This document shows positions 1 through 20,605 of a stretch of 32,000 nt of DNA, piece by piece. Positions within the stretch are counted from its first letter, which is position 1; each line of letters starts with the position of its first letter. The translations under genes were made by a program, and so were the position numbers. A model generated the notes under the pieces. That model was given only the letters and a program-made list of their open reading frames with translations. It ran no database searches and was not told the origin of the DNA. The stretch is from Pseudodesulfovibrio mercurii. GTDB taxonomy: Bacteria > Desulfobacterota > Desulfovibrionia > Desulfovibrionales > Desulfovibrionaceae. The stretch spans positions 150,001 to 182,000 of the forward strand of contig NC_016803.1 of NCBI RefSeq assembly GCF_000189295.2, in the 5' to 3' direction.

Positions 1-2
1 TG

Positions 3-2492
3 GAGGGCCTCGGCACTCCCGACAACCTGCATCCCATTCAGATGGCCTGGATCGCCTACGGCGGAGCGCAGTGCGGCTTCTGCTCCCCCGGCTTCCTGGT
101 CTCCACCTATGCGCTTTTGACCGAGAATCCGAGCCCCACCCGCGAGGAAATCCGCGACTGGTTCCAGCAGCACAAGAACGTCTGCCGCTGCACCGGTTAC
201 AAACCCCTGGTCGACGCCGTCATGGCCGCCGCCGAGGTCATGCGCGGCGACAAGTCCATGGATGATCTGATCTTCAAGATCCCCGAGAGCGGTCGCATCT
301 GGAACACCCGGTATCCGCGTCCGTCCGCCGTGGCCAAGGTCACCGGCACCTGGGACTTCGGCGCCGACATGGGTCTGCGCCTGCCCCCGGGAACCCTGCA
401 CTGCGAACTGGTCCAGGCCGAGGTTTCCCACGCCAACATCCTGTCCATCGACGTGACCGAGGCCGAGGCCGTGCCCGGCGTCTACAAGGTCGTGACCCAC
501 AAGGACGTCAAGGGCAAGAACCGCATCACCGGTCTGATCACCTTCCCGACCAACCTCGGCGACGGCTGGGATCGTCCCATCCTGTGCGACGAGAAGGTCT
601 TCCAGTACGGCGACGCCATCGCCATCGTCTGCGCCGACACCCCGCAGGCGGCCAAGGAAGGCGCCAAGAAGGTCAAGGTCGAACTCGAGCAGCTGCCCGA
701 GTACATGTCCGCCCCGGCGGCCATGGCCGAGGACGCCATCGAGATCCACCCCGGCACCCCCAACGTCTACTACATCCAGAAGGAAGCCAAGGGACCGGAC
801 ACCAAGCCCATCTTCGAGAAGGCCGACGTGGTCGTGGAAGGCGACTACTACACCCAGCGCCAGCCCCACATGCCCATCGAGCCCGACGTAGGGTTCGCCT
901 ACATGGGTGAGGACGACAAGCTGTTCATCCACTCCAAATCCATCGGCATCCATCTGCATCTGCTGATGATCGCCCCCGGTCTGGGCCTGGAGCCCGACAA
1001 GATCGCCCTGGTCCAGAACCCGACCGGCGGCACCTTCGGCTACAAGTTCTCCCCGACCATGGAAGCGCTGGTCGGCGCGGCGGCCCTGGCCACCGGCCGT
1101 CCCGTGTTCCTGAACTACACCTGGAAACAGCAGCAGCAGTACACCGGCAAGCGTTCCCCGCAGTTCACCACCGTGCGCCTGGCCTCCACCAAGGACGGCA
1201 AGCTGCTCGGCATGGAGACCGACTGGACCGTGGACCACGGCCCGTACTCCGAGTTCGGCGACCTGCTGACCCTGCGCGGCGCGCAGTACATCGGCGCCGG
1301 TTACGACATCCCGGCCATTCGCGGCGAGGGCCGCACCGTGTGCACCAACCACTGCTGGGGCGCGGCCTTCCGCGGCTACGGCGCTCCCGAGGCGGAGTTC
1401 CCCTCCGAGGTGTGCATGGACGAGCTGGCCGAGAAGCTGGGCATGGACCCGCTGGAACTGCGTTACAAGAACGCCTACCGCAAGGGTTCCACCACCCCCA
1501 CCGGCCAGGATCCCGAGGTCTACTCCCTGCCTGAGATGATCGACAAGGTCCGTCCCAAGTACGAGGAGTTCAAGAAGATCGCCGCCGAGAAATCCACCGA
1601 CGCCGTGAAGTACGGCGTGGGCGTGTCCATCGGCGTGTACGGTTCCGGTCTGGACGGCCCGGACACCGCCGAGGTCGATATCGCCCTGAACGAGGACAAC
1701 ACCGTCACGGTGTACTCCGCCTGGGGCGACCACGGCCAGGGCGCGGACATGGGTACCCTGGGCACCGCCCACGAGGCCCTGCGTCCCCTGAGCCTGACCC
1801 CGGATCAGATCCACCTGATGATGGGCGACACCAGCAACTCCCCCGCGGCCGGTCCCGCCGGCGGCAGCCGCTCCCAGGTCGTCGTCGGTCAGGCCACCAA
1901 GAACGCCTGTGATCAGCTCGTGGCCGCCATGCGGAAGCCCAACGGCGCCTTCCGCACCTACAAGGAAATGGTCGATGACGGTCTGGCAGTGCTCTATCAC
2001 GGCAAGTGGACCGCTCCGGCCAACGACTGCGATGCCAACGGCCAGGGCAACCCGTTCTGCTGCTACATGTACGGCGTGTTCTGCTTCCTGGTTTCCGTGG
2101 ACATCGCCACCGGCAAGGCCAAGGCCGAGAAGGTCGTCACCGTCGCCGACATCGGCGTGGTGAACAACTACCTCGTGGTGGACGGCCAGATCCACGGCGG
2201 CGTCGCTCAGGGCATCGGCCTGGCGCTGACCGAGGATTACGAGGACATCAAGAAGCACGCCAACATGGCCGGCGCCGGTATCCCGTACTGCAAGGACATC
2301 CCGGACGACATGGAGATCATCTACGTGGAATCCCCGCGTCCCGACGGTCCCTTCGGCGCTTCCGGCGTGGGCGAGATGCCTCTGACCGCTCCGCATGCGG
2401 CCATCATCAACGCCATCTACAACGCCTGCGGTGCGCGTATCCGCCACCTGCCGGCCTACCCCGAGAAGGTGCTCGCAGCGCTCAAGGGCTAA
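3..2492 (+). CDS. mop: Aldehyde oxidoreductase, Mop-type molybdenum hydroxylase (MCD-Moco, two [2Fe-2S]); 5' end lies outside the window
   Basis: Frame 3 is open from nt 3, upstream of the ORF-track Met at 42. The translation is collinear with the D. gigas MOP sequence as I remember it. Matching blocks include GGAQCGFCSPGF and CRCTGYKPLVDAV (second 2Fe-2S domain), GKNRITGLITFPTN.GDGWDRPILCDEKVFQYGD, RQPHMPIEPDV, QQQQYTGKRSP, PDGPFGASGVGE.PLT.PHAAIINAI and the C-terminal LPAYPEKVL.ALK. Stop TAA at 2490-2492. Confidence 0.95.
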   Translation, partial: EGLGTPDNLHPIQMAWIAYGGAQCGFCSPGFLVSTYALLTENPSPTREEIRDWFQQHKNVCRCTGYKPLVDAVMAAAEVMRGDKSMDDLIFKIPESGRIWNTRYPRPSAVAKVTGTWDFGADMGLRLPPGTLHCELVQAEVSHANILSIDVTEAEAVPGVYKVVTHKDVKGKNRITGLITFPTNLGDGWDRPILCDEKVFQYGDAIAIVCADTPQAAKEGAKKVKVELEQLPEYMSAPAAMAEDAIEIHPGTPNVYYIQKEAKGPDTKPIFEKADVVVEGDYYTQRQPHMPIEPDVGFAYMGEDDKLFIHSKSIGIHLHLLMIAPGLGLEPDKIALVQNPTGGTFGYKFSPTMEALVGAAALATGRPVFLNYTWKQQQQYTGKRSPQFTTVRLASTKDGKLLGMETDWTVDHGPYSEFGDLLTLRGAQYIGAGYDIPAIRGEGRTVCTNHCWGAAFRGYGAPEAEFPSEVCMDELAEKLGMDPLELRYKNAYRKGSTTPTGQDPEVYSLPEMIDKVRPKYEEFKKIAAEKSTDAVKYGVGVSIGVYGSGLDGPDTAEVDIALNEDNTVTVYSAWGDHGQGADMGTLGTAHEALRPLSLTPDQIHLMMGDTSNSPAAGPAGGSRSQVVVGQATKNACDQLVAAMRKPNGAFRTYKEMVDDGLAVLYHGKWTAPANDCDANGQGNPFCCYMYGVFCFLVSVDIATGKAKAEKVVTVADIGVVNNYLVVDGQIHGGVAQGIGLALTEDYEDIKKHANMAGAGIPYCKDIPDDMEIIYVESPRPDGPFGASGVGEMPLTAPHAAIINAIYNACGARIRHLPAYPEKVLAALKG

Positions 2493-2561: not shown

Positions 2562-4805
2562 ATGGAACAAGCGGAACTCAGACAGTGGGAACAGAAGTGC
2601 ATCCAGGAGGAATCCCCCCGGTGCACGGCGGCCTGCCCCCTGCATGTGGACGCGCGCGAGTGCTGTTCGCTGCTGGCCGCGGGCCGCGTGGACAAGGCGT
2701 GGGCCGTACTGGCCAAGACAATGCCCCTGCCGGGGGTCCTGGCCCGGACCTGCGACGCGCCGTGCAAGGCGGCCTGCCTGCGCCGGGACAAGGGCGGCCC
2801 CATCGAGATGGGGGCCCTGGAACGGTTCCTGGCGGGAACGGCCCAGGCGGCCAAACCGCCCCGGCCCCTGCCGCGCAACGGCAAGTCCGTGGCCGTCATC
2901 GGCGGGAACATGACCGGGCTGTGCGCGGCCTGGGAGATCGCCCGCAAGGGGTTCGCCGTGACCGTGTACTGCACCGCGCCGGACGCGGGCGCGGACCTGC
3001 CCGACGGGGTCCTGGACGGGGAACTCGCGGACATGGAGCGCATGGGCGTGGCCCTCAAGCGGGGCGCACCCCTGACCCCGGAGCTGGTCGAGGACCGGCT
3101 GGACGCATGCGACGCGGTCTTCATCGACGGCGACGGCGTGCCCGACGCGATCCTGAATTTCGCCGAACCCGACGAGATCACGCTCGGCACCAACCGTCTG
3201 GGGCTGTTCGCCACCCGTCCGGGCGAGACCTCGCCGGTCTTCATGGCCGCGGCCGGACGCCGCGCGGCCAACTCCATCCTGCGGTTCACCCAGGGCGTGT
3301 CCATGGTCAAGAGCCGCGAACTCGAAGGCCCCTACGAGACGCGCCTGTACACCGTGCTCGACAAGGTGGAGCCGGTGGCGCCCGTGGCCGTGGGGGAGGG
3401 CTATGACCAGCCCCGCGCCGTGGAGGAGGCCGCCCGCTGCCTGAAGTGCGAATGCATGGAGTGCGTGAAGGGCTGCGTCTTCCTCAAGCATTACAAGCAG
3501 TACCCCAAGGTCTACGTGCGCCAGGTCTACAACAACGAGGCCATTGTCCGGGGCACGCGCCAGGCCAACAAGATGATCAACTCGTGCATGCTCTGCGGCC
3601 TGTGCGACACGGTCTGTCCCGAGGACTTCGCCATGGGCGAGGTCTGTCTCGAGGCGCGGCGGCACATGATCGCCAAGGGGACCATGCCGCCCTCGGCCCA
3701 CGAGTTCGCTCTGCGCGACATGGCCTTTGCCGACGGCGACAAGTGCGCCCTGGCCCGGCACGCGCCGGGCGAGACCTCCAGCGAATACGTCTTTTTCCCC
3801 GGCTGCCAGCTGACCGCCACCGATCCCGGCGGTGCGGAGCGCGCCTATGCGGACCTCCGCACCCGGCTGGGCAAGGTCGGGCTGATCCTGCGCTGCTGCG
3901 GCGCTCCGGCCGCCTGGTCCGGGCGTGACGCCCTGTTCGGGGAGTCCCTGGCCGAACTGCGCGCGGACTGGCAGGGCCTCGGCTCGCCGCGCATCATCGC
4001 GGCCTGCCCCTCCTGCCTCAAGATCCTGCGGCAGGCCATGCCCGAGGCGGAGATCGTCTCCCATTGGTCCCTCCTGAGCGCCCTGGGACTGCCGGACACC
4101 GCCCTGAAGACGGGCGGGACCCTGGCCGTGAACGACCCGTGCGCTGCCCGCGAGGACGGGGCGCTGCGCGGCGAGGTGCGTGGCCTGCTGGACGCCCTCG
4201 GGGTGTCCGTGGTCGAACCGGAGTACAGTGGCGGGTTGACCCAGTGCTGCGGCTACGGTGGCCTGCTCAACGAGGTGGACCCCCAGCTCGGCCGGGCCGC
4301 GGCCCAGGCCAGGGCCGACGGCGCGGACGAGGACTTCGTGACCTACTGCGCCATGTGCCGGGACATGATCGCCCGCACGGGCAAGCGGACCATGCATCTC
4401 TACGATCTGCTCTATCCCGGCGGCGAGCCGGGGGCGCGGCCCACGCCAGGCCATTCCGAGCGGCGCGAGAACCGCGTCCACCTGCGCGAGAAGCTCCTGC
4501 GCGAGCTGTGGAGCGAGGCGGACGGCGTCCAGGCCGAGGACTTCGAGCGGGTCCGCATGACCTGCACCGAGATGGGCGCGGCGGCCATGGAGGAGCGGCG
4601 CATCCTCATCAGCGACGTGCAGAAGGTCCTGCTCCAGGCCGAACGATCCGGCAGGCACCTGGTCCACGGCGAGACCGGCCGCTTCCTGGCCTCGTTCAGG
4701 CCGAACACGGTGACCTACTGGGTGGAATACGAACTCACGGACGGCGGCTACCTGGTGCATAACGCCTGGTGCCACCGCATGAAGATAGAAGGAGGGCAGC
4801 CATGA
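2562..4805 (+). CDS. Multidomain Fe-S oxidoreductase: GltD-like N-terminal Cys cluster plus degenerate Rossmann segment, 2x[4Fe-4S] ferredoxin motifs, two CCG (HdrD/GlpC-type) Cys-rich domains, and an unknown C-terminal domain
   Basis: 747-aa ORF. Motifs seen: CTAACPLHVD...CDAPCKAAC; VAVIGGNMTGLCAAWEIARKG (GxGxxG-like); CLKCECMECVKGC and CMLCGLCDTVCP; FPGCQL...RCCGAP and NDPCAAR...QCCGYGG. GC3-rich codon usage is like its neighbours. Confidence 0.85.
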   Translation: MEQAELRQWEQKCIQEESPRCTAACPLHVDARECCSLLAAGRVDKAWAVLAKTMPLPGVLARTCDAPCKAACLRRDKGGPIEMGALERFLAGTAQAAKPPRPLPRNGKSVAVIGGNMTGLCAAWEIARKGFAVTVYCTAPDAGADLPDGVLDGELADMERMGVALKRGAPLTPELVEDRLDACDAVFIDGDGVPDAILNFAEPDEITLGTNRLGLFATRPGETSPVFMAAAGRRAANSILRFTQGVSMVKSRELEGPYETRLYTVLDKVEPVAPVAVGEGYDQPRAVEEAARCLKCECMECVKGCVFLKHYKQYPKVYVRQVYNNEAIVRGTRQANKMINSCMLCGLCDTVCPEDFAMGEVCLEARRHMIAKGTMPPSAHEFALRDMAFADGDKCALARHAPGETSSEYVFFPGCQLTATDPGGAERAYADLRTRLGKVGLILRCCGAPAAWSGRDALFGESLAELRADWQGLGSPRIIAACPSCLKILRQAMPEAEIVSHWSLLSALGLPDTALKTGGTLAVNDPCAAREDGALRGEVRGLLDALGVSVVEPEYSGGLTQCCGYGGLLNEVDPQLGRAAAQARADGADEDFVTYCAMCRDMIARTGKRTMHLYDLLYPGGEPGARPTPGHSERRENRVHLREKLLRELWSEADGVQAEDFERVRMTCTEMGAAAMEERRILISDVQKVLLQAERSGRHLVHGETGRFLASFRPNTVTYWVEYELTDGGYLVHNAWCHRMKIEGGQP

Positions 4806-5020
4806 GCAGCGCGATCACGGTACCTGGAACCGGAGCCGGGGGCTGGCGTTGCGGCCCCTGCGACGAGGACATGGTCATGAAACCGGTGGGGCTGACCTAT
4901 CTCAACTCCCGGTTTGACGTGGAATTGCCCACCTGCCCCAAGTGCGGCTACGTGCTCATCCCCGAGTCCCTGGCCCTGGGCAAGATGTACCAGGTGGAGC
5001 AACTGCTGGAGGACAAGTAA
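4802..5020 (+). CDS. Small zinc-ribbon protein (72 aa), putative redox or metal-binding partner
   Basis: The ATG at 4802 overlaps the upstream stop (ATGA). The protein has CGPC...(25 aa)...CPKC, a four-Cys knuckle pair. It is in the same frame as the ORF-track entry 4769-5020, and the coupled ATG is preferred. Confidence 0.7.
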   Translation: MSSAITVPGTGAGGWRCGPCDEDMVMKPVGLTYLNSRFDVELPTCPKCGYVLIPESLALGKMYQVEQLLEDK

Positions 5021-5022: not shown

Positions 5023-5676
5023 GTGCGATTCGCGCCGCCTCCGCTGTGGGAGCGCGCGGAACTGCGCGCCGTGGCCGGGGAGACCCTGCGGCCGGGCGGC
5101 TTCGAGCTGACCGACCGGGCGGCGGACTTCATCGGCGCGGTGCCGGGCTGGCGCGTCCTGGACGTTGGTGCGGGCCTGGGGGCCACCGTGGCCCGGCTGC
5201 GGGCGCGCTACGGCGTGCGGGCCTGGGGCGTGGAGCCCTCGGCCGACCAGCTCGACCGGGCCAAGGGTGCGCCGGGACTCGTCCGGGCGCGCGGCGACCG
5301 GTTGCCGTTTCTGCCGGAAACCTTTGACGCGCTCTTCTGCGAGTGCGTCTTTTCCCTGTTCGACGACCGGCCCGGAGGGCTCACGGAATTTCACCGGGTG
5401 CTAAGGCCAGGCGGTTTCCTGGTCCTGTCCGACCTGTGCGCCGTCGGCTGCCCCGTGGGCGACGGCGCGTCCTGCGCGGACCGGGCCGCGCCCCTGGCCG
5501 AGACCGACCGGCTGGTCCGAGAGGGCGGATTTACGGTCCGGCTGCTGGAGGACCACGGCGCCCACCTGCGGGACCTGGCCGCCCGGCTGGTCTGGACCGC
5601 CGGGGAGGCGGCCTCCGACTGCAACCGGGACCTGGGCTATTTCCTGATGATCGCGCAAAAGCAAGGAGCGGACTGA
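5023..5676 (+). CDS. Class I SAM-dependent methyltransferase
   Basis: The GTG at 5023 lies 2 nt after the upstream stop. Motif I is VLDVGAGLGATV, post-I is GVEPS, and LRPGGFLVLSD is present. The longer ORF-track start at 4942 would overlap the previous gene. Confidence 0.85.
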   Translation: MRFAPPPLWERAELRAVAGETLRPGGFELTDRAADFIGAVPGWRVLDVGAGLGATVARLRARYGVRAWGVEPSADQLDRAKGAPGLVRARGDRLPFLPETFDALFCECVFSLFDDRPGGLTEFHRVLRPGGFLVLSDLCAVGCPVGDGASCADRAAPLAETDRLVREGGFTVRLLEDHGAHLRDLAARLVWTAGEAASDCNRDLGYFLMIAQKQGAD

Positions 5677-6131
5677 TGCTGGACGACGCCGGACTTCGCG
5701 TCATGGAACTTGCCGGAAAGGGCTATTGTTGCAGCCAGATGATGGTCATCATGGCCCTGGACGAGATGGACCGCGAGGACCCGGACCTGGTCCGGGCCGC
5801 GGGCGGGCTGTGCAACGGGCTGGGCGACTGCTCCGGACCGTGCGGCGTGCTCACGGGCTCGGTCCTGGCGCTCGGCCTGTACGCGGGCAAGGGGCAGGAC
5901 ATGGAGGAGCCCGAGGAGGTCCTGCCGGTCATGCTCGAGTCCCTGCGCGACTGGTTTACGGAGCGGACCCTGGAATACGGCGGCATCACCTGCGGGGCGA
6001 TCCTGGACGGCGGCTGCGGCAAGCCCCATCCCGAGCGCTGCGGCGGGTTGGTGGCCGAGGCCAACGCCAAGGTGCGCGAAATTCTGGTCGATAACGGGCT
6101 CGACCCGGCCGAGGGACGCGAGCTGCCGTGA
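5676..6131 (+). CDS. C_GCAxxG_C_C family protein (Cys-rich putative redox protein)
   Basis: The ATG at 5676 shares one nt with the upstream TGA (TGATG). The family-like Cys pattern is GYCCSQ..., CSGPCGVLTGSVLALG, ITCGAIL, ERCGGLV. The upstream part of ORF 5343-6131 overlaps the methyltransferase and was rejected. Confidence 0.85.
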   Translation: MLDDAGLRVMELAGKGYCCSQMMVIMALDEMDREDPDLVRAAGGLCNGLGDCSGPCGVLTGSVLALGLYAGKGQDMEEPEEVLPVMLESLRDWFTERTLEYGGITCGAILDGGCGKPHPERCGGLVAEANAKVREILVDNGLDPAEGRELP

Positions 6132-7510
6132 ATTCGAGTCCGAGAAGCGTCTGCCCGATCTGCCTGCGGCCGATCCCGGCCCGCCACGAGACCGTGGCCC
6201 ACGAGACCTTCCTGGTCAAGGAGTGCCCGGAGCACGGCGCGTTCCGTACCGTGGTCTGGCGCGGCGAGCCGTCCTTCGACTCCTGGGCGCGTCCCAAGGT
6301 CCCGTCCGGGCCGAAGACGCCGTTCACCCGTGTGGAGCGGGGGTGCCCTCTGGACTGCGGGCTGTGCGACGCCCACCGGCAGCACACCTGCACCGCGCTC
6401 ATCGAGGTCACCTGGCGCTGCGACCTGGGCTGTCCGGTCTGTTTCGCTTCATCCGGCAAGGCGGCCCCACCCGATCCGTCCCTCGATGCACTGGACACGC
6501 TCTTCGACCGGGTGGAGCTGGCCTCGGGCCACTGCAACATCCAGCTCTCGGGCGGCGAGCCCACGGTGCGCGAGGACCTGCCCGAGATCATCCGGCTGGG
6601 CAAGGCCAGGGGATTTCCGTTCATCCAGCTGAACACCAACGGGCTGCGGCTCGGTTGCGAACCGGGCTACGCGGACCGGCTGGCCGAGGCCGGGCTGGAT
6701 TCGGTCTTTCTCCAGTTCGACGGCACCGAGGAATCCATTTTCGAGGCCCTGCGGGGCCGCCCGCTGCTCGAAACCAAGCTCGCGGCCCTGGACGCATTGG
6801 CCCGTGCCGGGGTAGGCGTCATCCTGGTGCCCACGCTGGTGCCGGGGGTCAACGACCGCGACCTGGGCAACATCCTCAGGCTGGGCGCGGCCCGCTCTCC
6901 GGCGGTGCGCGGGGTGCATTTTCAGCCGGTCAGCTATTTCGGGCGCTATCCCAAGCAGCCGGACGACGGCGAGCGCATGACCCTGCCCGAGATCATGCGC
7001 GGCTTGGAGGCCCAGACGGGCGGGATGCTCAGGGCGACGGATTTCCGGCCGCCGGGCTGCGAGCACGCCTACTGCTCCTTTCACGCCAACTACGTGGTCA
7101 CGGAGGATGGCGGGCTGACCCGGCTCTCCTCGGGCGGGTCCTGCGGCTGCACACCGCGCCCGGCCTCCGAGGGGGCGGACGCGGCCAAGGCCTTCGTCAA
7201 GCGCCAGTGGGCCGCCCCGGGCAAACAGCTGCCCATGGCCTTCGACGGGCCGGGCGGGGCCGCCCCTTCGCGGAGCGCACCCGAGGACGCCCTGGACGCC
7301 TTCATCCGGCGGGCGGCCACCCACACCTTCGCGGTTTCGGCCATGGCCTTCCAGGATTGCTGGACCCTGGACCTGGAACGGCTCAAGGGGTGCTGCATCC
7401 ACGAGGTCTCGCCGGACGGGCGGCTCATCCCGTTCTGCGCCTACAACCTGACGTCCATGGGCGGCGAAACCCTGTATCGGGGGAAATGTCATGGGCCGGT
7501 CCCATCTTGA
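6128..7510 (+). CDS. Radical SAM protein with an N-terminal zinc ribbon and two tandem CX3CX2C motifs
   Basis: The GTG at 6128 overlaps the upstream stop (GTGA). Cys/His residues: C9-x2-C12...C33-x2-H36; C73PLDC77GLC80; C98DLGC102PVC105. GGEPT and a TIM-barrel-like core follow. Confidence 0.9.
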   Translation: MNSSPRSVCPICLRPIPARHETVAHETFLVKECPEHGAFRTVVWRGEPSFDSWARPKVPSGPKTPFTRVERGCPLDCGLCDAHRQHTCTALIEVTWRCDLGCPVCFASSGKAAPPDPSLDALDTLFDRVELASGHCNIQLSGGEPTVREDLPEIIRLGKARGFPFIQLNTNGLRLGCEPGYADRLAEAGLDSVFLQFDGTEESIFEALRGRPLLETKLAALDALARAGVGVILVPTLVPGVNDRDLGNILRLGAARSPAVRGVHFQPVSYFGRYPKQPDDGERMTLPEIMRGLEAQTGGMLRATDFRPPGCEHAYCSFHANYVVTEDGGLTRLSSGGSCGCTPRPASEGADAAKAFVKRQWAAPGKQLPMAFDGPGGAAPSRSAPEDALDAFIRRAATHTFAVSAMAFQDCWTLDLERLKGCCIHEVSPDGRLIPFCAYNLTSMGGETLYRGKCHGPVPS

Positions 7511-8783
7511 TTGCTGGCTGGCCGGGCGCATGGGGCGCGACGCGACGCCGACCCGGCCCGAGCTGCGCGCCTGGCTGCTGGAGCGGCTGCGGGAGCTGGT
7601 GGACCACGCCCGGCGGGGCAGTCCGTTCTACGCCCGCCACTTCGCGGACGTGTCCGGCGCGGACATTTCGTCCCTGGAGGACTTCGCCCGGTTGCCGGAG
7701 ATATCCCCGGAGCTGCTGCAGACCACCCCGGACGCGCTCCTGAGTGTGTCCCGCAGCGAGATCGAACGGGTGGTCACCCTGTCCAGCTCCGGGACCACGG
7801 GCGAGCCCAAGCGCATCTTCCACACGGCCGCCGACCTTGAGGCCACGGTGGATTTTTTCGGCTGGGGCATGGCCAACATGGTCGAGCCGGGCGGCACGGC
7901 CCTGGTGCTCCTGCCCGGCGAACGGCCCGGCGGGGTGGGGCGACTGCTCGGCGAGGCCCTGGCGCGGCACGGCTCCAGGGTCGTGGCCATCGGCGAACTG
8001 ACGGACGCCGGGGCGGCCGTGGAGCGGTGCCTGGCCGAGAAGGCCGCCTGCGTGGTCGGCTCCCCGGCCCACGTCAACCTGCTGGCCCACGCCTGGGCCG
8101 CGCGCGGCCTGCCCAAGGGGGGCATCCGGTCCGCGCTGCTCTGCTGGGACGTCATCCCTGACGCGGTCCGGGCCAGCGTGGCCGAGCGGCTGGGCTGTCG
8201 GGTCTTCCGCCACTGGGGCATGATCGAGACCGGCCTGGGCGGGGCCGTGGAGTGCGCGCCCGGTTCGGGCATGCACCTGCGCGAGACCGACGTCTTCGTT
8301 GAGATCGTGGACCCGCGCACGGGCGCCTTGCTGCCGGACGGCGAGTTCGGCGACATGGTCGTGACCACGCCGCTCAAGATGGGCATGCCGATCATCCGCT
8401 ACCGCACCGGGGACGTGGGCCGCATCCTGCCCGGCGCGTGCGGTTGCGGCAGTCCCCTGCGTCGGCTGGACCCGCTGGTCCGGCGCAGGCGCGACGGTGT
8501 GACCCTGGCCTCCGGTAGCCTGACCCTGCGGGAACTGAACGAGATTTTGTACGGCCTGCCGGGCGTGGCCGATTTCGCGGCCCGGCTGGAGGGCGACACC
8601 CTGCGCGTCACGGTCTGCGGCAGCGAGCCGGCGGACGCGGTCCTGGCGGCCCTGAAGGGAGCGCCCGCCGTGGCCGGGGGACTTGTCCAAGGCACCCTGA
8701 AGGTGGATATTGAGAACAGGCATGACGCCGCGCCCGCCGTCCCAGGACTGGCCAAGCGGCGCATAACGACAGGAGTTGCATGA
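7491..8783 (+). CDS. Adenylate-forming enzyme, PaaK / coenzyme F390 synthetase-like
   Basis: SSSGTTGEPKR (AMP-binding A3 motif), YRTGD (A8) and a C-terminal GLAKRR Lys motif. The ATG at 7491 has GGGGGA 7 nt upstream and overlaps the radical SAM gene by 20 nt. An alternative ATG lies at 7530. Confidence 0.9.
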   Translation: MGRSHLDCWLAGRMGRDATPTRPELRAWLLERLRELVDHARRGSPFYARHFADVSGADISSLEDFARLPEISPELLQTTPDALLSVSRSEIERVVTLSSSGTTGEPKRIFHTAADLEATVDFFGWGMANMVEPGGTALVLLPGERPGGVGRLLGEALARHGSRVVAIGELTDAGAAVERCLAEKAACVVGSPAHVNLLAHAWAARGLPKGGIRSALLCWDVIPDAVRASVAERLGCRVFRHWGMIETGLGGAVECAPGSGMHLRETDVFVEIVDPRTGALLPDGEFGDMVVTTPLKMGMPIIRYRTGDVGRILPGACGCGSPLRRLDPLVRRRRDGVTLASGSLTLRELNEILYGLPGVADFAARLEGDTLRVTVCGSEPADAVLAALKGAPAVAGGLVQGTLKVDIENRHDAAPAVPGLAKRRITTGVA

Positions 8784-9775
8784 TGAAAGCGTTTGTGCGC
8801 GACGTGGCCGGACTGGTGCGGGCCGAGGAGCCCTTTGTCCTGGCCACGGTGGTGGAGAGTTCCGGGTCCACGCCCCGGTCTTCGGGCGCGAAGATGGCCG
8901 TGCGGCCCGACGGGTCCATTTTCGGCACCGTGGGCGGCGGTCTGGCCGAGGCCCAGGCCTGCCGGGCGGCCGTGGAGATGTTGACGAACGGCGCCAAGGA
9001 CGGCGAGGCCAGGCTGATGTTCGTGGACATGACCCAGGAACTGGCCGCGAATTCCGACATGATCTGCGGCGGCGGGCTGTCCCTGCTCCTGGAAATGGCC
9101 GCTCCGGGCGGTGATTGCGCCCGCGTCTACGCCGAACTCGATCACCGGTTGCGCACGGGGGCGATCTCCACGCTGACCACGCGCATCCACGGCGGCAAGA
9201 CCCCGCGCATCCTCGGGCACGAGCTGCTGTTCGGCAGGTCGGTCGGCGAGGAGCCGGTCTTTTCGCGCGAGGCCGACCCCATGGTCCTGGACGAACCGTT
9301 CATCCCGCCCGCGCCGCTGTACATTTTCGGGGCCGGGCACGTGTCCCGGTTCACCGCGCGGGTGGCGGCCATGGTCGGCTTCCGCACCGTGGTCCTGGAC
9401 GATCGCGCGGACTACGCCAACCGCGAGCGGTTCCCCGAGGTGGACGAGGTGGTGGTCCTCGACTCCTTCGAGGGGTGCTGCGATGCCTTCAAGGACGATC
9501 CCGAGGCCTTCGTGGTCATCGTCACGCGCGGCCACCTGCACGACCGCAACGTCCTGGCCGAGGCCCTGCGCACCAGGGCGCACTACGTGGGCATGATCGG
9601 CAGCTCCACCAAGCGGAACAAGATTTACGACTCCCTGCTGGCCGACGGTTTCACCCAGGCCGACATCGATCGCTGCTACAGCCCCATCGGGCTGCCCATC
9701 GGCGGGCGGACCCCGGAGGAAATCGCGGTCAGTATCGTGGGCGAACTCATCCAGGTCCGGGCGGGCAAGCAATGA
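8780..9775 (+). CDS. xdhC: XdhC/CoxI-family molybdenum cofactor insertion chaperone
   Basis: N-terminal FVLATVVESSGSTPRSSGAKMAV...GTVGGG, then the Rossmann-like half LYIFGAGHVS...VIVTRGH. AGGAG at 8771-8775. The ATG at 8780 overlaps the upstream stop (ATGA); the ATG at 8783 is an alternative. Confidence 0.9.
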   Translation: MMKAFVRDVAGLVRAEEPFVLATVVESSGSTPRSSGAKMAVRPDGSIFGTVGGGLAEAQACRAAVEMLTNGAKDGEARLMFVDMTQELAANSDMICGGGLSLLLEMAAPGGDCARVYAELDHRLRTGAISTLTTRIHGGKTPRILGHELLFGRSVGEEPVFSREADPMVLDEPFIPPAPLYIFGAGHVSRFTARVAAMVGFRTVVLDDRADYANRERFPEVDEVVVLDSFEGCCDAFKDDPEAFVVIVTRGHLHDRNVLAEALRTRAHYVGMIGSSTKRNKIYDSLLADGFTQADIDRCYSPIGLPIGGRTPEEIAVSIVGELIQVRAGKQ

Positions 9776-10920
9776 AGGGGCTGACCGCGATCATCCCGGC
9801 CGCGGGGCTGTCCTCGCGCGTGGGCAGGTTCAAGCCGCTCCTGCCCCTTGACGGCGGCACGGTCCTGTCGCGTTGCGTTCGGCTGTTCAGGACGTGCGGC
9901 GTGGAGCGGGTCGTGGTGGTCACGGGCAAGCGCGCCGACGAGGTGGCCGCCTGCGCCATGGAGGCCGGGGCCGAGGCCGTGCACAACGCGGCCTTCGAGC
10001 AGGGCATGTATTCCTCGGTCCTGACCGGGGTGCGCGCCCTCGAGCCGGACGTGGACGCCTTTTTCATGCTTCCGGCGGACATCCCCCTGGTGCGGCCCGA
10101 GACCGTGACGCGGCTCATGGACGCCTACTCGCGCACGCGATCCACCGTGCTCTACCCCCGGTTCGCCGGGAAGCGCGGCCACCCGCCGATCATCGCCGCC
10201 GAGGTCGTCCCGGACATCCTCGCCCATGACGGGAGCGGGGGGCTGCGGACCGTGCTGAGCCGGTTCGAGGCGGGAGCGCGCGACCTGGACGTGGCAGATT
10301 TCGGAATCTCGTACGACCTGGACCATCTCGAGGACTACGAGATGGCCTTGGCCGTGGCCGGGATAGGCTATCCCCTCGCGGACGAGTGCCGCGAACTGTT
10401 CCGGTTGCAGGGGGTTTCGGACCACATCCGGAACCACTGCCGGGCCGTGGCCGCCGTGGCCTCGGCCCTGTGCGAACGGTTGAACGGCCGTCTGGACGAG
10501 CGCCGGGCCGCCGGGACCCGCGTGGTCCGGCTGGATCCCGGCCTGGTCCTGGGCGCGGCCCTGACCCACGACATCGGCAAGGGCACCAAGCGGCACGAGG
10601 CCGCCGGGGCCGAACTGCTCCGCGCCCACGGTTTTCCCGCCGCGGCCGACGTCGTGGGCGCCCATTTCGACGTGGCCCTGGCCGACGACGCGCCGATCAC
10701 CGAGAAGGAGGTCGTCTTCCTGGCCGACAAGCTGGTCCGCTGCCACGGGCCGGTCCCGCTGGCGGACCGCTACATGGAGAAGGTGGCCATGTACCGGCAC
10801 GAGGAGGGCGCGGAGGAGGCCATCCTGGGACGGCTCGGCCGGGCCAGGGCGGTCATGGACCGCTTCGACCGCGAGATGGCCGATTCGTCCGAACGCATCG
10901 CCGGGCAGGCCCTGTCGTGA
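9772..10920 (+). CDS. MobA/MocA-like NTP transferase fused to a C-terminal HD-domain phosphohydrolase
   Basis: The ATG at 9772 overlaps the xdhC stop (ATGA). N-terminus IIPAAGLSSRVGRFKPLLPL (nucleotidyltransferase P-loop-like) and MLPADIPLV. The C-terminal half has H...LTHDIGKG (HD signature). Confidence 0.9.
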   Translation: MKGLTAIIPAAGLSSRVGRFKPLLPLDGGTVLSRCVRLFRTCGVERVVVVTGKRADEVAACAMEAGAEAVHNAAFEQGMYSSVLTGVRALEPDVDAFFMLPADIPLVRPETVTRLMDAYSRTRSTVLYPRFAGKRGHPPIIAAEVVPDILAHDGSGGLRTVLSRFEAGARDLDVADFGISYDLDHLEDYEMALAVAGIGYPLADECRELFRLQGVSDHIRNHCRAVAAVASALCERLNGRLDERRAAGTRVVRLDPGLVLGAALTHDIGKGTKRHEAAGAELLRAHGFPAAADVVGAHFDVALADDAPITEKEVVFLADKLVRCHGPVPLADRYMEKVAMYRHEEGAEEAILGRLGRARAVMDRFDREMADSSERIAGQALS

Positions 10921-11516
10921 TCGTGCTCCTGCGCCATGCCCGGACCGAGGGCGGCCGGGGGATGTGCGTGGGGCGCACGCCCCTGCTTCTCTCGCCCGAG
11001 GGACACGTCCAGGCCCTGGACCTGGCCGGATGTTTCGTGGAGATTCCGTGGGCGCGGCTCTGTTCCAGCCCGGCGCGCCGGGCGCGGGAGACCCTGAGCC
11101 CGCTGGCCGCCCGGCTGGGCAGGGTCGTGGACATCCTGCCCGCCCTGGACGAGATCGACATGGGCGCGTGGGACGGGTTGCCCTTCGAGGTCCTCCGTGA
11201 GCGGTTTCCCGAGGCCTACGCGGCGCGCGGGCAGGGGCTCGGCCGGTTCCGGGTGCCGGGCGGGGAGAGCTTCGCCGACGTGGCCGACCGGGCCATGGCC
11301 GTTTTGGAGGAGTTGGCCCGAGGTCCGCAGCCGGTGCTGGCGGCGACCCACGCGGGCGTGCTCCGGGCGGTGCGCTGCCGTCTGACCGGCCATCCCCTGG
11401 ACGATCTGTTCCGCTTCACGCCGGGCAACGCGCAGTGCACGGTCCTCGGCACGGACGGCGGGTTGTCCCTTGCCGCTGCCGACCTGGACGCGCCTGCGGT
11501 GCGCGAACTGTTCTGA
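10917..11516 (+). CDS. Histidine phosphatase family protein (CobC / phosphoglycerate-mutase-like)
   Basis: The GTG at 10917 overlaps the upstream stop (GTGA). LLRHARTEG (RHG-type catalytic His) and a second catalytic-His block, LAATHAGVLRA. Confidence 0.85.
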   Translation: MIVLLRHARTEGGRGMCVGRTPLLLSPEGHVQALDLAGCFVEIPWARLCSSPARRARETLSPLAARLGRVVDILPALDEIDMGAWDGLPFEVLRERFPEAYAARGQGLGRFRVPGGESFADVADRAMAVLEELARGPQPVLAATHAGVLRAVRCRLTGHPLDDLFRFTPGNAQCTVLGTDGGLSLAAADLDAPAVRELF

Positions 11517-11534
11517 ATTCCTTCCGGGCCGTTG

Positions 11535-12419
11535 TCACAGCCGTTTCTGGACGAATTTCGAATTGCTCGAATAGAAGATGTTGTAGACAAGGGTCAGCAG
11601 GCAGGCGAACGCCGCCGAGCCGATGCCGATGGCCACGTTGTAGAAGGGCGGCGCGGTCAGGGCCAGCCTGATGAGCAGGGTGGCCAGGGCGAAGCCGGAG
11701 TTGCGGAAGACCGCCCGGAACTCGGGCAGGAACCGCTGGGCGATGAGCACCAGCATGATGTCGCTGAAGATCAGCACCGTGTAGAAGCTCTTGAAGAAGT
11801 GGAAGGGATGCTCGCCCCGGAGCACGTGCAGGCCGTTCTGGATGCCCATGCCCACGAAGATGGCCAGCATGACCAGGGCGACCAGCTTCTTGGCGGCCAC
11901 GAACTTGAACAGCGGGGTGCCCCCCCTGATGGTTTCGTCCAGGTTGCGGCGCAGCAGGGCGTAGACCCCGAGCAGGCAGAAGATGATTACGGCCCCGCAG
12001 CCGTCCGAGATGAGTTCCCACAGCTCGGTCTCGTGGCCGGTGATGGTGATGGGTTCCGGGAAGTCCGCCAGGGTCTTGAAGGCGTCCCTAAGCAGGATCA
12101 GGGCCAGGATCTCGAACTGCTTGCCCACGGACTTGGAGATGGAGCAGGGCAGGGTGAAGATCAGGCCGACCACCTCCAGGACCAGGACCAGGGTGAAGGC
12201 CAGGTTGATGGCCATGAAGTGGCTGGTCGGGATCATTGCTCCGAGCTGCCCGGTGATCCAGCCCTGCCGTTTCATCTCGATGGTGATCAGCGCCAGGACG
12301 AAGACCACCACCAGGAAGCCGGCCACGGCCCGCTGGGTGGAGTCCCTTTCCCAGAAGTGGTGCAGGGGATCGAAGGTGAAGGTCACCAGGTCGTATATCT
12401 TGTGCATGGGATGTAGCAT
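11535..12419 (-). CDS. Polytopic integral membrane protein, function unknown
   Basis: Six or more hydrophobic segments (VAGFLVVVFVLALITI, FMAINLAFTLVLVLEVVGLIF, GAVIIFCLLGVYALL, LVALVMLAIFVGMGI, TVLIFSDIMLVLIA, IGIGSAAFACLLTLV). I prefer the ATG at 12419, preceded by GGAAGAG, over the TTG at 12458 used by the ORF track. It converges on the phosphatase gene with an 18-nt gap. Confidence 0.75.
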   Translation of the reverse strand: MLHPMHKIYDLVTFTFDPLHHFWERDSTQRAVAGFLVVVFVLALITIEMKRQGWITGQLGAMIPTSHFMAINLAFTLVLVLEVVGLIFTLPCSISKSVGKQFEILALILLRDAFKTLADFPEPITITGHETELWELISDGCGAVIIFCLLGVYALLRRNLDETIRGGTPLFKFVAAKKLVALVMLAIFVGMGIQNGLHVLRGEHPFHFFKSFYTVLIFSDIMLVLIAQRFLPEFRAVFRNSGFALATLLIRLALTAPPFYNVAIGIGSAAFACLLTLVYNIFYSSNSKFVQKRL

Positions 12420-12499
12420 GATCTCTTCCGGATAAGTCCATCGGTTGCGCGCCGTCAACCGGCACGGTCGATGAACTAGCAGGGACCGTGCGGAAAGTA

Positions 12500-12518
12500 A
12501 ATAGGAAATATTCCTATT
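12500..12518. repeat. AT-rich perfect hairpin/palindrome AATAGGAA-ATA-TTCCTATT
   Basis: 8-bp arms and a 3-nt loop. It lies 3 nt beyond the helicase stop and about 80 nt upstream of the membrane-protein start. A second stem (GCACGGTC 12463-12470 / GACCGTGC 12484-12491) sits beside it. Its function is not resolvable from sequence; it could be a terminator or an operator. Confidence 0.5.
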
Positions 12519-12521
12519 AAC

Positions 12522-20339: not shown

Positions 20340-20377
20340 AATGTCTCCTTGGTTTTGGTTTCGTTGATTTCAATATG

Positions 20378-20392
20378 GCAAGGGGTGTGCCA
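20378..20392 (-). promoter_or_regulatory. Sigma-54 (-24/-12) promoter of the His/Gln/Asn-rich protein gene
   Basis: The minus strand reads TGGCAC-ACCCC-TTGC, an exact match to the TGGCAC-N5-TTGC core. The TTGC ends 38 nt upstream of the ATG at 20339. An AT-rich tract lies immediately upstream (20393-20435). Confidence 0.75.
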
Positions 20393-20455
20393 TTTCTTAA
20401 CATGCTGTTTACTTTGATAATATTTTTTATCGTTTCGCGGCGGAGCGCAGGGTTT

Positions 20456-20578: not shown

Positions 20579-20605
20579 CGGGGTGTGGGGGATGGGGTAT
20601 GGAGG

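Follow-up and report, generated by a model that had tools for sequence, protein, structure and literature searches.

The closest structurally solved relative of the enzyme considered here is the archaeal tetraether lipid synthase known as GDGT-MAS or Tes (MJ0619). MJ0619 had been assigned as a pterin C-methylase, an assignment that was overturned in 2022: the activity could not be reproduced, and it was contradicted by the structure, in which a narrow, hydrophobic tunnel for lipid forms the active site (PMC9433317). "MJ0619-type" and "Tes-type" enzymes, which a first-pass annotation of the DNA described below had listed as two, are in fact one enzyme, GDGT-MAS (PMC9433317). GDGT-MAS contains a rubredoxin-like site with the motif C9X2C12X20C33X2H36, and an N-terminal auxiliary cluster ([Fe4S4]N) whose ligands are C73, C77, C80 and a conserved histidine; its C-terminal cluster forms a C–S bond to the substrate radical and has a non-cysteine ligand, as in sulfur-donor radical SAM enzymes, and Tyr459, which is strictly conserved in about 1,000 archaeal Tes homologues, adjoins the substrate carbon (PMC9433317).

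We analyzed a 32,000-nucleotide stretch of the Pseudodesulfovibrio mercurii genome (contig NC_016803.1, positions 150,001 to 182,000), which we refer to as the window and within which all coordinates are given. Nucleotides 6128-7510 of the forward strand encode a radical SAM protein of 460 amino acids, whose GTG start overlaps the upstream stop codon as GTGA. Translation showed the boundaries of this open reading frame and of its cysteine motifs in the first-pass annotation to be exact, and the motifs are conserved family-wide. The gene, trsS, lies within the following operon:

1..2492, + strand: Mop-type, MCD-dependent aldehyde oxidoreductase (AOR), 5' end cut by the window edge, first in-window ATG at 42 (NF045668, 1502 bits, cutoff 1100)
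2562..4805, + strand: fusion of a GltD-like NAD(P)/FAD protein to an HdrD-like dicluster/CCG protein ('diclust_near_Sec', DVU_1558-type; NF045663, 970 bits, cutoff 530)
4802..5020, + strand: DUF7479 'DVU_1557 family redox protein', 72 residues, two CxxC pairs (PF24292, E 1.5e-26; NF045645, 101 bits, cutoff 60)
5023..5676, + strand: class I SAM methyltransferase, DVU_1556 family (NF045667, 205 bits, cutoff 155)
5676..6131, + strand: C_GCAxxG_C_C cysteine-rich protein (CGCA protein), DVU_1555 family (NF045669, 170 bits, cutoff 103; PF09719)
6128..7510, + strand: trsS, Cys form of a Tes-fold radical SAM enzyme (NF045646, 682.5 bits, cutoff 490)
7491..8783, + strand: PaaK-like adenylate-forming ligase, DVU_1553 family (NF045666, 425 bits, cutoff 300)
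8780..9775, + strand: XdhC-family Moco chaperone ('aldehyde oxidoreductase maturation factor'; NF045664, 397 bits, cutoff 350)
9772..10920, + strand: MocA-like NTP transferase fused to an HD phosphohydrolase, DVU_1551 family (NF045665, 423 bits, cutoff 315)
10917..11516, + strand: histidine phosphatase, CobC alpha-ribazole phosphatase-like, last gene of the operon (PF00300, E 1.6e-42)

Pfam and NCBIfam profiles thus confirmed the context that had been read from the DNA, namely an XdhC homologue, a MocA-like transferase, a SAM methyltransferase and a Mop-type AOR; the DUF7479 gene at 4802..5020, which was absent from that reading, has a start codon that overlaps the stop codon of the preceding gene (ATGA). 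The AOR matches positions 89-905 of its profile, and scores 1336 bits against MOD of D. desulfuricans (1DGJ) and 1263 bits against MOP of D. gigas (1VLB and related entries). The dicluster fusion protein contains the Pfam domains Fer4_20, NAD_binding_8, Fer4_17 and CCG, and is probably an electron-transfer partner. The methyltransferase gene, whose GTG start at 5023 is preceded by GGAGGA, encodes a protein with second-best matches to ArsM-type enzymes, and the ligase gene overlaps the 3' end of trsS by 20 nt. The NTP transferase-HD protein scored 141 against the MocA model TIGR03310 (below its cutoff of 186), and the histidine phosphatase scored 118 against TIGR03162 (below its cutoff of 163). 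When the methyltransferase, the ligase and the CGCA protein were each searched against PDB sequences, the matches were generic only and gave no hint of function; the best matches of the ligase were phenylacetate-CoA ligases (E 6.5e-32).

The window protein is a typical Cys-form member of the equivalog-level family NF045646, "radical SAM (seleno)protein TrsS". The match is full-length, pairing residues 6-451 with positions 4-441 of the 441-position profile, and TrsS is also the NCBI name for close relatives of the protein. Against the Tes model NF045702 it scored 328 bits, below the cutoff of 450, in an alignment limited to residues 6-340, whereas a true Tes that served as positive control (P0268) scored 610 bits. 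Names and curated models already exist for the family and for the operon as a whole (NF045645, NF045646 and NF045663-NF045669), and every neighbor of trsS matches one of the co-curated DVU_1551-1559 families, so that both gene and operon were already known. The curated families carry a citation to Haft and Tolstoy (mSystems, 2025), reportedly also the source for TrsS as a selenoprotein family. A whole-word literature search for 'TrsS' returned unrelated abbreviations only, and a search by DVU_155x locus tags found nothing informative.

The resemblance to the MJ0619/Tes family noticed from the DNA was borne out by both sequence and predicted structure. In particular, the only close solved structure for the window protein is that of GDGT-MAS (7TOL, E 9e-80; 31% identity overall), and an AlphaFold2 model of TrsS (pLDDT 84.7) had 7TOL as its top Foldseek match, with a TM score of 0.77, followed by MoaA at 0.4. 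The two enzymes (TrsS, and Tes as seen in 7TOL and 7TOM) have in common the fold, four metal-site motifs and the residues that contact 5'-deoxyadenosine (5'-dA), and align without gaps across residues 5-106. Pfam placed Radical_SAM at residues 93-252 and Zn_ribbon_HMPTM at residues 6-45. The relevant sites in the window protein are:

6152..6235, + strand: C9PIC12 ... C33PEH36, predicted rubredoxin-like mononuclear Fe site (Cys3His), by homology to GDGT-MAS
6344..6376, + strand: C73PLDCGLC80 (nt 6344-6367) plus H83, predicted N-terminal auxiliary [4Fe-4S] cluster, by homology to GDGT-MAS
6419..6442, + strand: C98DLGCPVC105 (C98, C102, C105), radical SAM [4Fe-4S] motif, at the start of the Pfam Radical_SAM match
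7058..7060, + strand: Cys311 codon, the family Sec (UGA) position in PPG[C/U]E..CSF, with in-frame TGA in Sec forms
7073..7438, + strand: C316, M406, C422 and C437, predicted Cys3Met ligands of the C-terminal auxiliary [4Fe-4S] cluster, by conservation

Across 45 diverse TrsS members, no variation occurs at C12, C33, H36, C73, C77, C80, H83, C98, C102 or C105, and C9 is conserved in at least 90%; with few exceptions, these motif residues are retained among 78 representatives of the Tes/TrsS superfamily at large, in which C316, M406, C422 and C437 are near-universal. In the alignment with GDGT-MAS, M406 falls opposite the labile Met439, and the choice of the three cysteine ligands of this cluster follows conservation rather than coordinates. 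The 5'-dA contacts F106, R210, Q268, S271 and R275 of GDGT-MAS correspond to F106, R209, Q266, S269 and R273 of TrsS, of which four are invariant and F106 is at least 90% conserved. Thus, by homology, all four Tes-type metallocentres are predicted in TrsS, with conserved ligand positions. The same homology revises two labels. Of the two tandem CX3CX2C motifs that had been taken to be of the radical SAM type, the second is so, whereas the first, together with His83, corresponds to the auxiliary [4Fe-4S] cluster; and the "zinc ribbon" that had been noted corresponds to the rubredoxin-like Cys3His iron site of GDGT-MAS, whose motif and numbering are those of the window protein (PMC9433317).

Given the fold and the four metal sites common to both enzymes, TrsS might act in the manner of Tes, as a bacterial synthase of tetraether or membrane-spanning lipids. 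We consider this highly implausible, however. In addition to the subthreshold score against NF045702, the residue equivalent to Tes Tyr459 is Glu426 in the window protein and V, I, E, T or A across TrsS, with tyrosine in Tes-type representatives only. The insertion of 21-27 residues that follows residue 309 in Tes is absent from TrsS (the window copy has 7 residues there); in Tes, this insertion and amphipathic helices in the C-terminal domain form part of the hydrophobic lipid tunnels. The C-terminal region is also more polar in TrsS than in Tes. Bulky hydrophobic residues, a sequence proxy for the substrate pocket, make up 17% of positions 300-399 in the window protein and 22% in TrsS-like proteins, compared with 35% in Tes-type proteins (n=4), and this poorer hydrophobic content is suggestive of a non-lipid substrate. 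Conversely, TrsS has two conserved cysteines that Tes does not, C88 and C311. Finally, Tes is an archaeal lipid synthase, whereas TrsS is bacterial and encoded in a molybdenum-cofactor (Moco) enzyme operon, and trsS was found in no lipid context among the 80 genome loci that we compared. By these sequence comparisons TrsS is related to the archaeal tetraether synthase, as its cousin in bacteria, but is not itself a Tes.

The chemistry previously proposed for the window protein was that of a pterin-directed enzyme carrying out C-methylation, or some other stable modification, of the molybdopterin or of a residue of Mop. The operon does hold genes for XdhC, a MocA-like transferase and an AOR, TrsS is fused to a MocA-like domain in some genomes, and the Pfam domain name keeps the old "HMPTM" label. 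However, since the pterin-methylase assignment of MJ0619 did not survive, homology lends no support to the "pterin-directed" premise, and it is a coincidence that the old name matches the pterin context of the operon; an "MJ0619-type" class D pterin C-methylase family, as originally defined, no longer stands. TrsS also has neither a cobalamin domain nor any other methyl-transfer domain. P. mercurii, a sulfate reducer of the Pseudodesulfovibrio group, is not known to have methanopterin biosynthesis. The AOR of D. gigas was the first structure of the xanthine-oxidase family to be solved, and the enzyme has been studied for about 40 years. The D. gigas genome carries the same trsS operon, yet in the native enzyme at 1.28 A the MCD is of the ordinary kind, and its pterin rings are very well defined (PMC10223205). 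A stable modification of pterin or Mop is therefore unlikely, and we assign the pterin-modification proposal only a very small probability. TrsS is not a pterin methylase, nor is it a lipid synthase. Taken as a whole, the earlier interpretation holds for the architecture and for the linkage to Moco genes, and fails for the pterin premise and the double radical SAM motif.

We next consider what the genetic context conveys about the function of TrsS. The order AOR-diclust-MTase-CGCA-TrsS-ligase(-XdhC-NTPt-HisPhos), in which MTase is the methyltransferase and diclust the dicluster fusion protein, is conserved over 80 loci that span Desulfobacterota, Chloroflexota, Bacillota and Spirochaetota, and is found in D. 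gigas, in D. vulgaris, in TrsS lineages without Cys311 and in Sec forms, which bears out the tight linkage of trsS to a Mop-type AOR and to Moco maturation genes that had been noted for the window. Among the 80 loci the ligase is present in 79, the CGCA protein in 77, the dicluster protein in 72 and the methyltransferase in 71, with XdhC in 44, the NTP transferase in 36 and the histidine phosphatase in 30. DUF7479 stays directly upstream of TrsS even in the divergent loci L087, L095 and L096. TrsS is naturally fused to the methyltransferase, to the ligase or to NTP_transf_3(-HD), and two loci (L002 and L003) contain TrsS-ligase-XdhC-NTP transferase with no adjacent AOR, diclust, methyltransferase or CGCA gene. 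Together, these two loci and the NTP_transf_3(-HD)-TrsS fusions link TrsS to the cofactor machinery rather than to the AOR alone.

The prominence of the ligase raises the possibility of a metabolic pathway in which the AOR oxidizes an aldehyde, the PaaK-like ligase turns the resulting carboxylate into an adenylate or CoA thioester, and TrsS and the methyltransferase modify the carbon skeleton, with the dicluster protein carrying electrons and with XdhC, MocA-HD and the phosphatase serving only to mature the AOR. Such a pathway would account for the ligase being the tightest partner of TrsS (nearly always present, overlapping and sometimes fused) and for its closest solved relatives being phenylacetate-CoA ligases; a carboxylic acid is the product of an AOR, and the AOR-diclust-MTase-CGCA-TrsS-ligase core persists in loci with no nearby XdhC or MocA. 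It would not, however, account for L002 and L003 or for the fusion of TrsS to the MocA-like/HD protein, and no conserved transporter or further catabolic genes were found near the operon in the loci examined, including those of D. gigas and D. vulgaris. On balance we think this pathway unlikely, albeit deserving of some weight.

Less probable still, in our estimation, is that TrsS acts on a protein, introducing a radical C–S or C–C cross-link into, or thiolating, DVU_1557/DUF7479, the CGCA protein or the AOR, with the methyltransferase capping the product. The constancy of DUF7479 immediately 5' of TrsS would fit such a role, as would the C–S bond that the C-terminal cluster of Tes makes to its substrate (PMC9433317), and the below-cutoff NCBIfam matches of TrsS include peptide-modifying radical SAM maturases. 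DUF7479, however, with its two CxxC pairs, looks like a folded metal-binding protein and so more like an electron carrier than a precursor peptide; TrsS has neither a RiPP recognition element nor a SPASM domain; and the D. gigas AOR structure, as described (PMC10223205), shows no unusual residue. None is known from 1VLB either.

The position of selenocysteine in the TrsS family was located here by alignment of in-frame TGA codons. In locus L087, codon 311 is an in-frame TGA beyond which the full C-terminal domain continues in frame, and the protein reconstructed through this codon scored 572 bits against NF045646, above the cutoff. A metagenome search with a pattern requiring TGA at codon 311 returned 16 matches, all 16 of them TrsS genes that read through, and in 17 Sec-form genes the in-frame TGA falls at the position of Cys311 in the window protein. 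These findings show that Cys311 of the window protein occupies the selenocysteine position of the family. A scan of the 80 genome loci for in-frame TGA found none within the trsS gene body, and all 80 are therefore Cys forms. (Note that three N-terminally short homologues, P0069, P0100 and P0088, proved to be mis-called starts or contig ends that contain no TGA, and that a TGA at window Cys454 in L004 is ambiguous and was not accepted as a Sec site because only two codons follow it, it overlaps the start of the ligase gene, and the NCBIfam profile ends at 451.) In other TrsS lineages, which occupy the same operon, position 311 is Thr, Ala, Ser, Arg or Lys; Cys311 therefore cannot be universally essential, and we rejected it as a universal catalytic residue. 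Cys/Sec311 is specific to TrsS, and lies five residues before the predicted ligand C316.

The explanation that we favor, with modest confidence, is that the window protein is a Cys-form TrsS with four Tes-type metallocentres that performs radical C–H chemistry for the Mop-type AOR, in an accessory or maturation capacity, this role being read from gene context only and the chemistry carried over from a homologue with 31% identity overall. Its role would most likely be radical C–H activation in AOR/Moco maturation. According to this model, the rubredoxin-like site and the N-terminal cluster would be the entry route for electrons, possibly supplied by the co-encoded NAD(P)H/FeS (diclust) protein and the small DVU_1557 CxxC protein. 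Cleavage of SAM at the C98/C102/C105 cluster would then yield a 5'-deoxyadenosyl radical that abstracts hydrogen from an unactivated carbon of a small, non-lipid molecule, and the resulting substrate radical would be handled at the C-terminal cluster with the participation of Cys/Sec311, giving a product with a new C–S(Se) or C–C bond. TrsS would work together with the ligase, the methyltransferase, the C_GCAxxG_C_C protein and the XdhC/MocA-HD machinery on the Mop-type MCD-dependent AOR, and the adjoining ArsM-like methyltransferase would, by analogy, fit methylthio- or methylseleno-type chemistry. Two observations count against a maturation role, namely the unmodified MCD of the D. gigas AOR and the presence of XdhC and the NTP transferase next to trsS in only 44 and 36 of the 80 loci, respectively. 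As no stable product is visible on the D. gigas AOR, any such role would be transient, labile or indirect.

We also compared TrsS with other radical SAM systems. The radical SAM core of MoaA, the GTP 3',8-cyclase and the acknowledged radical SAM member of the Moco pathway, is the next-best match to TrsS in structure and in sequence (E 1e-9 to 1e-17, TM about 0.4), although the window protein scored 63.8 bits against the MoaA model TIGR02666, far below its cutoff of 284. MoaA resembles TrsS in its C-terminal auxiliary cluster and in being tied to the molybdenum cofactor; unlike TrsS, it has no rubredoxin-like site or N-terminal cluster, and it acts on GTP at the first step of the pathway, whereas TrsS is encoded beside the late-stage factors XdhC and MocA-like transferase. 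A contextual analogue is TIGR04317, the 'tungsten cofactor oxidoreductase radical SAM maturase', whose annotation assigns it the maturation of an aldehyde-type, pterin-dependent oxidoreductase, a function that we take to have been inferred only. TIGR04317 has a SPASM-type architecture, and TrsS gave a weak match to its core (48.8 bits, cutoff 380). LipA, BioB and MiaB/RimO, in which an auxiliary cluster is the sulfur donor, are related to TrsS only through the radical SAM core.

The genes downstream of the AOR are conserved across at least four phyla. A Tes-type enzyme with a putative active-site Cys/Sec residue, encoded beside Moco chaperones, points to an unexplored step in the maturation or function of molybdoenzymes. 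TrsS would also give the four-metal Tes scaffold a second, non-lipid chemistry. The "HMPTM" and "pterin methylase" labels that persist on the Tes fold are obsolete, and are unfit for inferring pterin chemistry.

The Desulfovibrio-type AOR appears to be independent of a sulfido ligand, uniquely in the xanthine-oxidase family, and its activation is unlike that of desulfo-XO (PMC10223205). A more speculative extension of the maturation role, which we rate as improbable, is that TrsS, the ligase, the ArsM-like methyltransferase, the CGCA protein and DVU_1557 build or install a labile feature of the AOR active site; if true, this would explain both peculiarities. A feature of this kind would be lost in aerobic purification and hence never be seen in crystal structures. 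Candidates include a sulfur-, selenium- or carbon-based ligand of Mo, or a transient cofactor intermediate.

The open reading frame at 6128–7510 is 460 aa long on translation, and its GTG start overlaps the stop codon of the upstream gene as GTGA. It lies in an operon whose other members each score above the cutoff of a dedicated NCBIfam model, with the exception of the final gene.

Genes of the operon (window positions; strand where recorded)
1–2492, 5′ end cut: Mop-type aldehyde oxidoreductase (AOR), NF045668
2562–4805: NAD(P)/FAD and HdrD-like dicluster protein, NF045663
4802–5020 (+): DVU_1557 "redox protein" with two CxxC motifs, DUF7479, 72 aa, between the dicluster and methyltransferase genes, NF045645
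5023–5676: DVU_1556 methyltransferase, NF045667
5676–6131: DVU_1555 C_GCAxxG_C_C protein, NF045669
6128–7510 (+): TrsS, NF045646
7491–8783: DVU_1553 PaaK-like ligase, NF045666
8780–9775: XdhC-type AOR maturation factor, NF045664
9772–10920: DVU_1551 NTP transferase with HD domain, NF045665
10917–11516: histidine phosphatase, final gene; Pfam match, with a score under the threshold of the NCBIfam model that fits it best

Because the junctions at 4802, 5676, 6128, 7491, 8780, 9772 and 10917 overlap or abut (ATGA, GTGA or TGATG; 20 nt for TrsS and ligase), the gene arrangement suggests translational coupling from the dicluster gene to the phosphatase gene.

The 6128–7510 product scores 682.5 bits on NF045646, "radical SAM (seleno)protein TrsS" (cutoff 490; profile positions 4–441 of 441), an equivalog-level match, and Pfam places Zn_ribbon_HMPTM at residues 6–45 and Radical_SAM at 93–252. 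Its closest named relatives in a collection of 5.8 billion proteins (85–57% identity) belong to Desulfovibrio, Pseudodesulfovibrio, Maridesulfovibrio, Desulfotalea, Syntrophotalea and others, and most are listed at NCBI under the name TrsS. A review of prokaryotic selenoproteomes from 2026 contains the entry "Radical SAM selenoprotein TrsS, NF045646", credited to Haft & Tolstoy 2025. The gene, the family name, its Sec/Cys character and the neighborhood have thus been curated and published before, and TrsS as an object is already known. The first-pass annotation had described two tandem CX3CX2C motifs preceded by a zinc ribbon, and a regular-expression scan found these residues exactly where it had put them: C73PLDCGLC80 (nt 6344–6367), C98DLGCPVC105 (nt 6419–6442), C9PIC12 and C33PEH36. 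Among 45 diverse homologues C12, C33, H36, C73, C77, C80, H83, C98, C102 and C105 do not vary and C9 is retained in at least 90%, and the resulting CCCH / CCCH / CCC pattern is near-universal among 78 representatives of the wider Tes/TrsS superfamily; judged by these alignments, the motif residues are conserved and not a matter of chance.

The sole close solved structure is that of the tetraether lipid synthase of M. jannaschii, the mj0619 product, known as GDGT-MAS or Tes (7TOL, 7TOM; E 9e-80, with residues 5–309 and 398–441 aligned). An AlphaFold2 model of TrsS built from 45 sequences (pLDDT 84.7, pTM 0.88) matches 7TOL at a TM score of 0.77 with 31% identity; the second match is MoaA, at about 0.4. 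In GDGT-MAS, C9X2C12X20C33X2H36 ligates a rubredoxin-type iron, C73, C77, C80 and a conserved His hold an N-terminal auxiliary [4Fe-4S] cluster, and the radical SAM cluster sits on CX3CX2C; a C-terminal [4Fe-4S] cluster has a labile Met439 ligand, and the substrate carbon bonds to a sulfide of this cluster in catalysis (Lloyd et al. 2022, PMC9433317). Because TrsS aligns with GDGT-MAS without a gap over residues 5–106, the two share their numbering there, and the reading of the motifs changes. By analogy, a Cys3His iron site is the likeliest identity of the "zinc ribbon", the first CX3CX2C is a predicted auxiliary-cluster motif with H83 as fourth ligand, and the predicted SAM-binding cysteines are C98, C102 and C105 only. 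The motifs of the first-pass annotation therefore stand as present and conserved, whereas its assignments of the first as a SAM motif and of the ribbon to zinc give way to the GDGT-MAS homology. The 5′-deoxyadenosine contacts F106, R210, Q268, S271 and R275 of GDGT-MAS correspond to F106, R209, Q266, S269 and R273 of TrsS, of which four are invariant in the family, with F106 kept in at least 90% of sequences. The counterpart of Met439 is M406, itself invariant, and C316, C422 and C437, near-universal in both families, are by their conservation the putative cysteine ligands of the predicted C-terminal cluster. This mapping of the TrsS motifs onto the Tes metal sites is new.

The same homology bears on the proposal that TrsS is directed at a pterin. 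MJ0619-type pterin C-methylases and tetraether synthases had been cited as separate members of a single family, but both names refer to the same protein. Lloyd et al. obtained no corroboration of its methanopterin-methylase annotation and considered its narrow hydrophobic tunnel an unlikely fit for a bulky hydrophilic pterin (PMC9433317). Homology therefore gives no reason to regard TrsS as pterin-directed; the Pfam name "HMPTM" is a leftover from an old UniProt name, and gene context is the only basis for any link between TrsS and a pterin.

Nor is TrsS a Tes. It scores 328 bits against the tetraether synthase model NF045702, below the cutoff of 450 and over residues 6–340 only, whereas the genuine Tes P0268, our positive control, scores 610 bits. 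Tyr459 of Tes, which about 1,000 archaeal homologues share without exception and which lies 4.2 Å from the substrate carbon (PMC9433317), is absent, its counterpart being Glu426 at a position that varies across the TrsS family, and an insertion of 21–27 residues in Tes between positions 309 and 316 is missing. Bulky hydrophobic residues make up 17% of positions 300–399, the equivalent of the Tes lipid-pocket region, in the window TrsS and on average 22% in 74 TrsS-like proteins, compared with 35% in Tes-type proteins, a sequence proxy drawn from a small sample of four. In TrsS a polar segment, P..PA.EGA...F..RQW, is conserved instead and leads into a variable linker modeled with low confidence; two extra conserved cysteines, C88 and C311, are both absent from Tes. 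Lloyd et al. had pointed out bacterial GDGT-MAS homologues in organisms without biphytanyl lipids (PMC9433317). Despite the shared fold, we thus give almost no credence to a lipid synthase activity of TrsS. The linker is short in the window protein (pLDDT <50 at 368–375); in the 531-aa TrsS of D. vulgaris (L089:16756–18351) a low-complexity insertion rich in Thr, Pro and Ser lengthens it by about 60 residues.

One of the extra cysteines marks the position of selenocysteine in the family, whose name already implies members with Sec. A shortened representative, P0239, stops at "...NFIPPG"; the following codon in its contig, L087, is TGA, and the frame beyond it spans the whole C-terminal domain (...ISGMAFQDAWNIDLERLRRCCIHV...PFCAYY...). 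Rebuilt with the TGA read through, this protein scores 572 bits, over the TrsS cutoff. A scan of a metagenome collection with a degenerate pattern demanding F-x-P-P-G-TGA-E-x3-C-S-F returned 16 stretches, all 16 of them TrsS genes reading through the TGA; they form two sub-lineages, PPGUEE[SPA]HCSF and PPGUENALCSFH, and several lie in the canonical operon. Because the TGA of L087 and of all 16 stretches falls at this position, Cys311 of the window (nt 7058–7060) is, as judged from the alignment, the Cys counterpart of the family Sec, a location relative to the window protein that is new. Since it precedes the predicted ligand C316 by five residues, Cys/Sec311 probably lies at the predicted C-terminal cluster, the site of substrate-radical capture in Tes. 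In other TrsS lineages residue 311 is Thr, Ala, Ser, Arg or Lys, and both of those that were examined for gene context have the same operon; the residue is therefore important in the window lineage and not universally required. Other short homologues considered as Sec forms turned out to have mis-called starts or to end with their contigs, and no in-frame TGA occurred within the trsS gene body at any of 80 genome loci. In an 85%-identical TrsS (L004:1760–1771) a TGA stands at the codon of window Cys454 (7487–7489; ...YRGK-TGA-CAT-GGA-TAG), which may represent a second Cys/Sec pair at the C terminus or just an earlier stop; conservation is uninformative here because the region overlaps the ligase start. 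Loci of the sub-lineage PPGUEE[SPA]HCSFSALS (L100, L101, L107, L110, L112, L087) have a divergent context, with only a partial dicluster-like gene upstream of TrsS (135 aa with an RREF twin-arginine-like signal in L087) and, in L100, L101 and L110, a methyltransferase match on the opposite strand.

Scanning a single genome for each GTDB species yielded at least 557 TrsS loci, the best 80 of which were probed by tblastn with the window proteins. Matches were found for the ligase at 79 of these 80 loci, the C_GCAxxG_C_C protein at 77, the dicluster protein at 72, the methyltransferase at 71, AOR at 62, XdhC at 44, the NTP transferase at 36 and the phosphatase at 30; some loci lacking an AOR or dicluster match are short or truncated contigs. 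Gene order at the best 80 loci is nearly constant across Desulfobacterota, Chloroflexota, Bacillota and Spirochaetota. In a 50%-identity representative library we found the natural fusions methyltransferase–TrsS, TrsS–methyltransferase, TrsS–ligase, NTP_transf_3(-HD)–TrsS and TrsS–DUF5714 (P0122, P0172, P0142, P0123, P0126, P0135, P0124, P0129, P0127, P0154; L094, L095). The DUF5714 domain resembles "metal-binding (double) selenoprotein MbdU", and the NTP transferase–HD–TrsS fusion is flanked by a C_GCAxxG_C_C gene and, by tblastn, a probable ligase gene. The context claimed earlier, with XdhC, a MocA-like transferase and a methyltransferase, was right, as family models, conserved order at the best 80 loci and fusions attest. 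Because of the conserved operon and the fusions, TrsS appears functionally tied to Mop-type AOR and to cofactor-handling proteins. That these genes instead encode a metabolic route, with the ligase activating the acid produced by AOR, we consider a minority possibility. Two variant loci (L002:9517–13824 and L003:10001–14308) have the order TrsS–ligase–XdhC–NTP transferase beside chemotaxis and sigma-54 regulator genes, with no AOR, dicluster, methyltransferase or C_GCAxxG_C_C gene within 10 kb of TrsS.

D. desulfuricans MOD (1DGJ), at 1336 bits, and D. gigas MOP (1VLB and related), at 1263 bits, are orthologues of the AOR in the window. Using a sequence rebuilt from the PDB alignment to reach the genomic protein, we located the D. 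gigas locus in CP006585, where the order is mop, nitroreductase, dicluster protein, DUF7479, methyltransferase, C_GCAxxG_C_C protein, TrsS, ligase, XdhC and phosphatase; D. vulgaris has the same arrangement. The D. gigas TrsS is 57% identical to that of the window, with all motifs present. The structurally best-known AOR thus comes from an operon-bearing genome, a new observation that argues against stable cofactor modification: the D. gigas enzyme contains MCD (PMC10223205), and a stable extra methyl or cross-link on the pterin or Mop would have shown in its structure, yet none is visible. The stable pterin or Mop modification suggested by the first-pass annotation is accordingly disfavored, and we rate it very unlikely. 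Labile groups could have been lost before structure determination. The D. gigas enzyme is the exception in its family, as it does not require a sulfido ligand and its activation is unlike that of desulfo-xanthine oxidase (PMC10223205); a labile or transient TrsS product at its active site seems to us a long shot. A nitroreductase-family gene is inserted between mop and the dicluster gene in D. gigas (L088:12800–13414), and the AOR gene of D. gigas, D. vulgaris and L001 is immediately preceded by a MoCF_biosynth gene, at a position that the window starts too late to include.

Beyond the established fold, conservation of the four metal sites and of the SAM/5′-deoxyadenosine contacts, Sec/Cys site, operon conservation, fusions and family membership, we infer that TrsS would cleave SAM and that a hydrogen would then be abstracted from an unactivated carbon. 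The substrate radical would be handled at the Cys3Met cluster with the aid of Cys/Sec311, giving a new C–S(Se) or C–C bond, and electrons may be supplied by the dicluster protein and DVU_1557. TrsS would be accessory to, or maturational for, the MCD-dependent AOR and act on a small, non-lipid substrate. Taken jointly, SAM cleavage, radical processing at the Cys3Met cluster and such a role for AOR form the account that we favor, by a modest measure of confidence. The DUF7479/DVU_1557 protein may be the electron donor of TrsS or its substrate; a protein substrate as such we hold to be improbable. The gene for this protein, unmentioned in the first-pass annotation, is directly upstream of TrsS even in the divergent loci L087, L095 and L096.

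The remaining genes of the window are unremarkable (SNF2 helicase, solute-binding proteins, RelA/SpoT, ABC permease, serine dehydratase, malate synthase G and histidine kinase). About 1 kb (11517–12521) separates the operon from the SNF2 helicase gene (12522–15731, minus strand), and the long overlapping ORFs in this gap (11532–12416, plus; 11535–12458, minus) had no Pfam match; neither did the long plus-strand ORFs at 20375–21220, 21105–23093 and 23918–24697 (within 20375–23096 and 23918–24700). Because of its high GC content (66%), the window yields many spurious long ORFs, and the real gene at 21189–22952 is apparently the ABC permease, on the minus strand.
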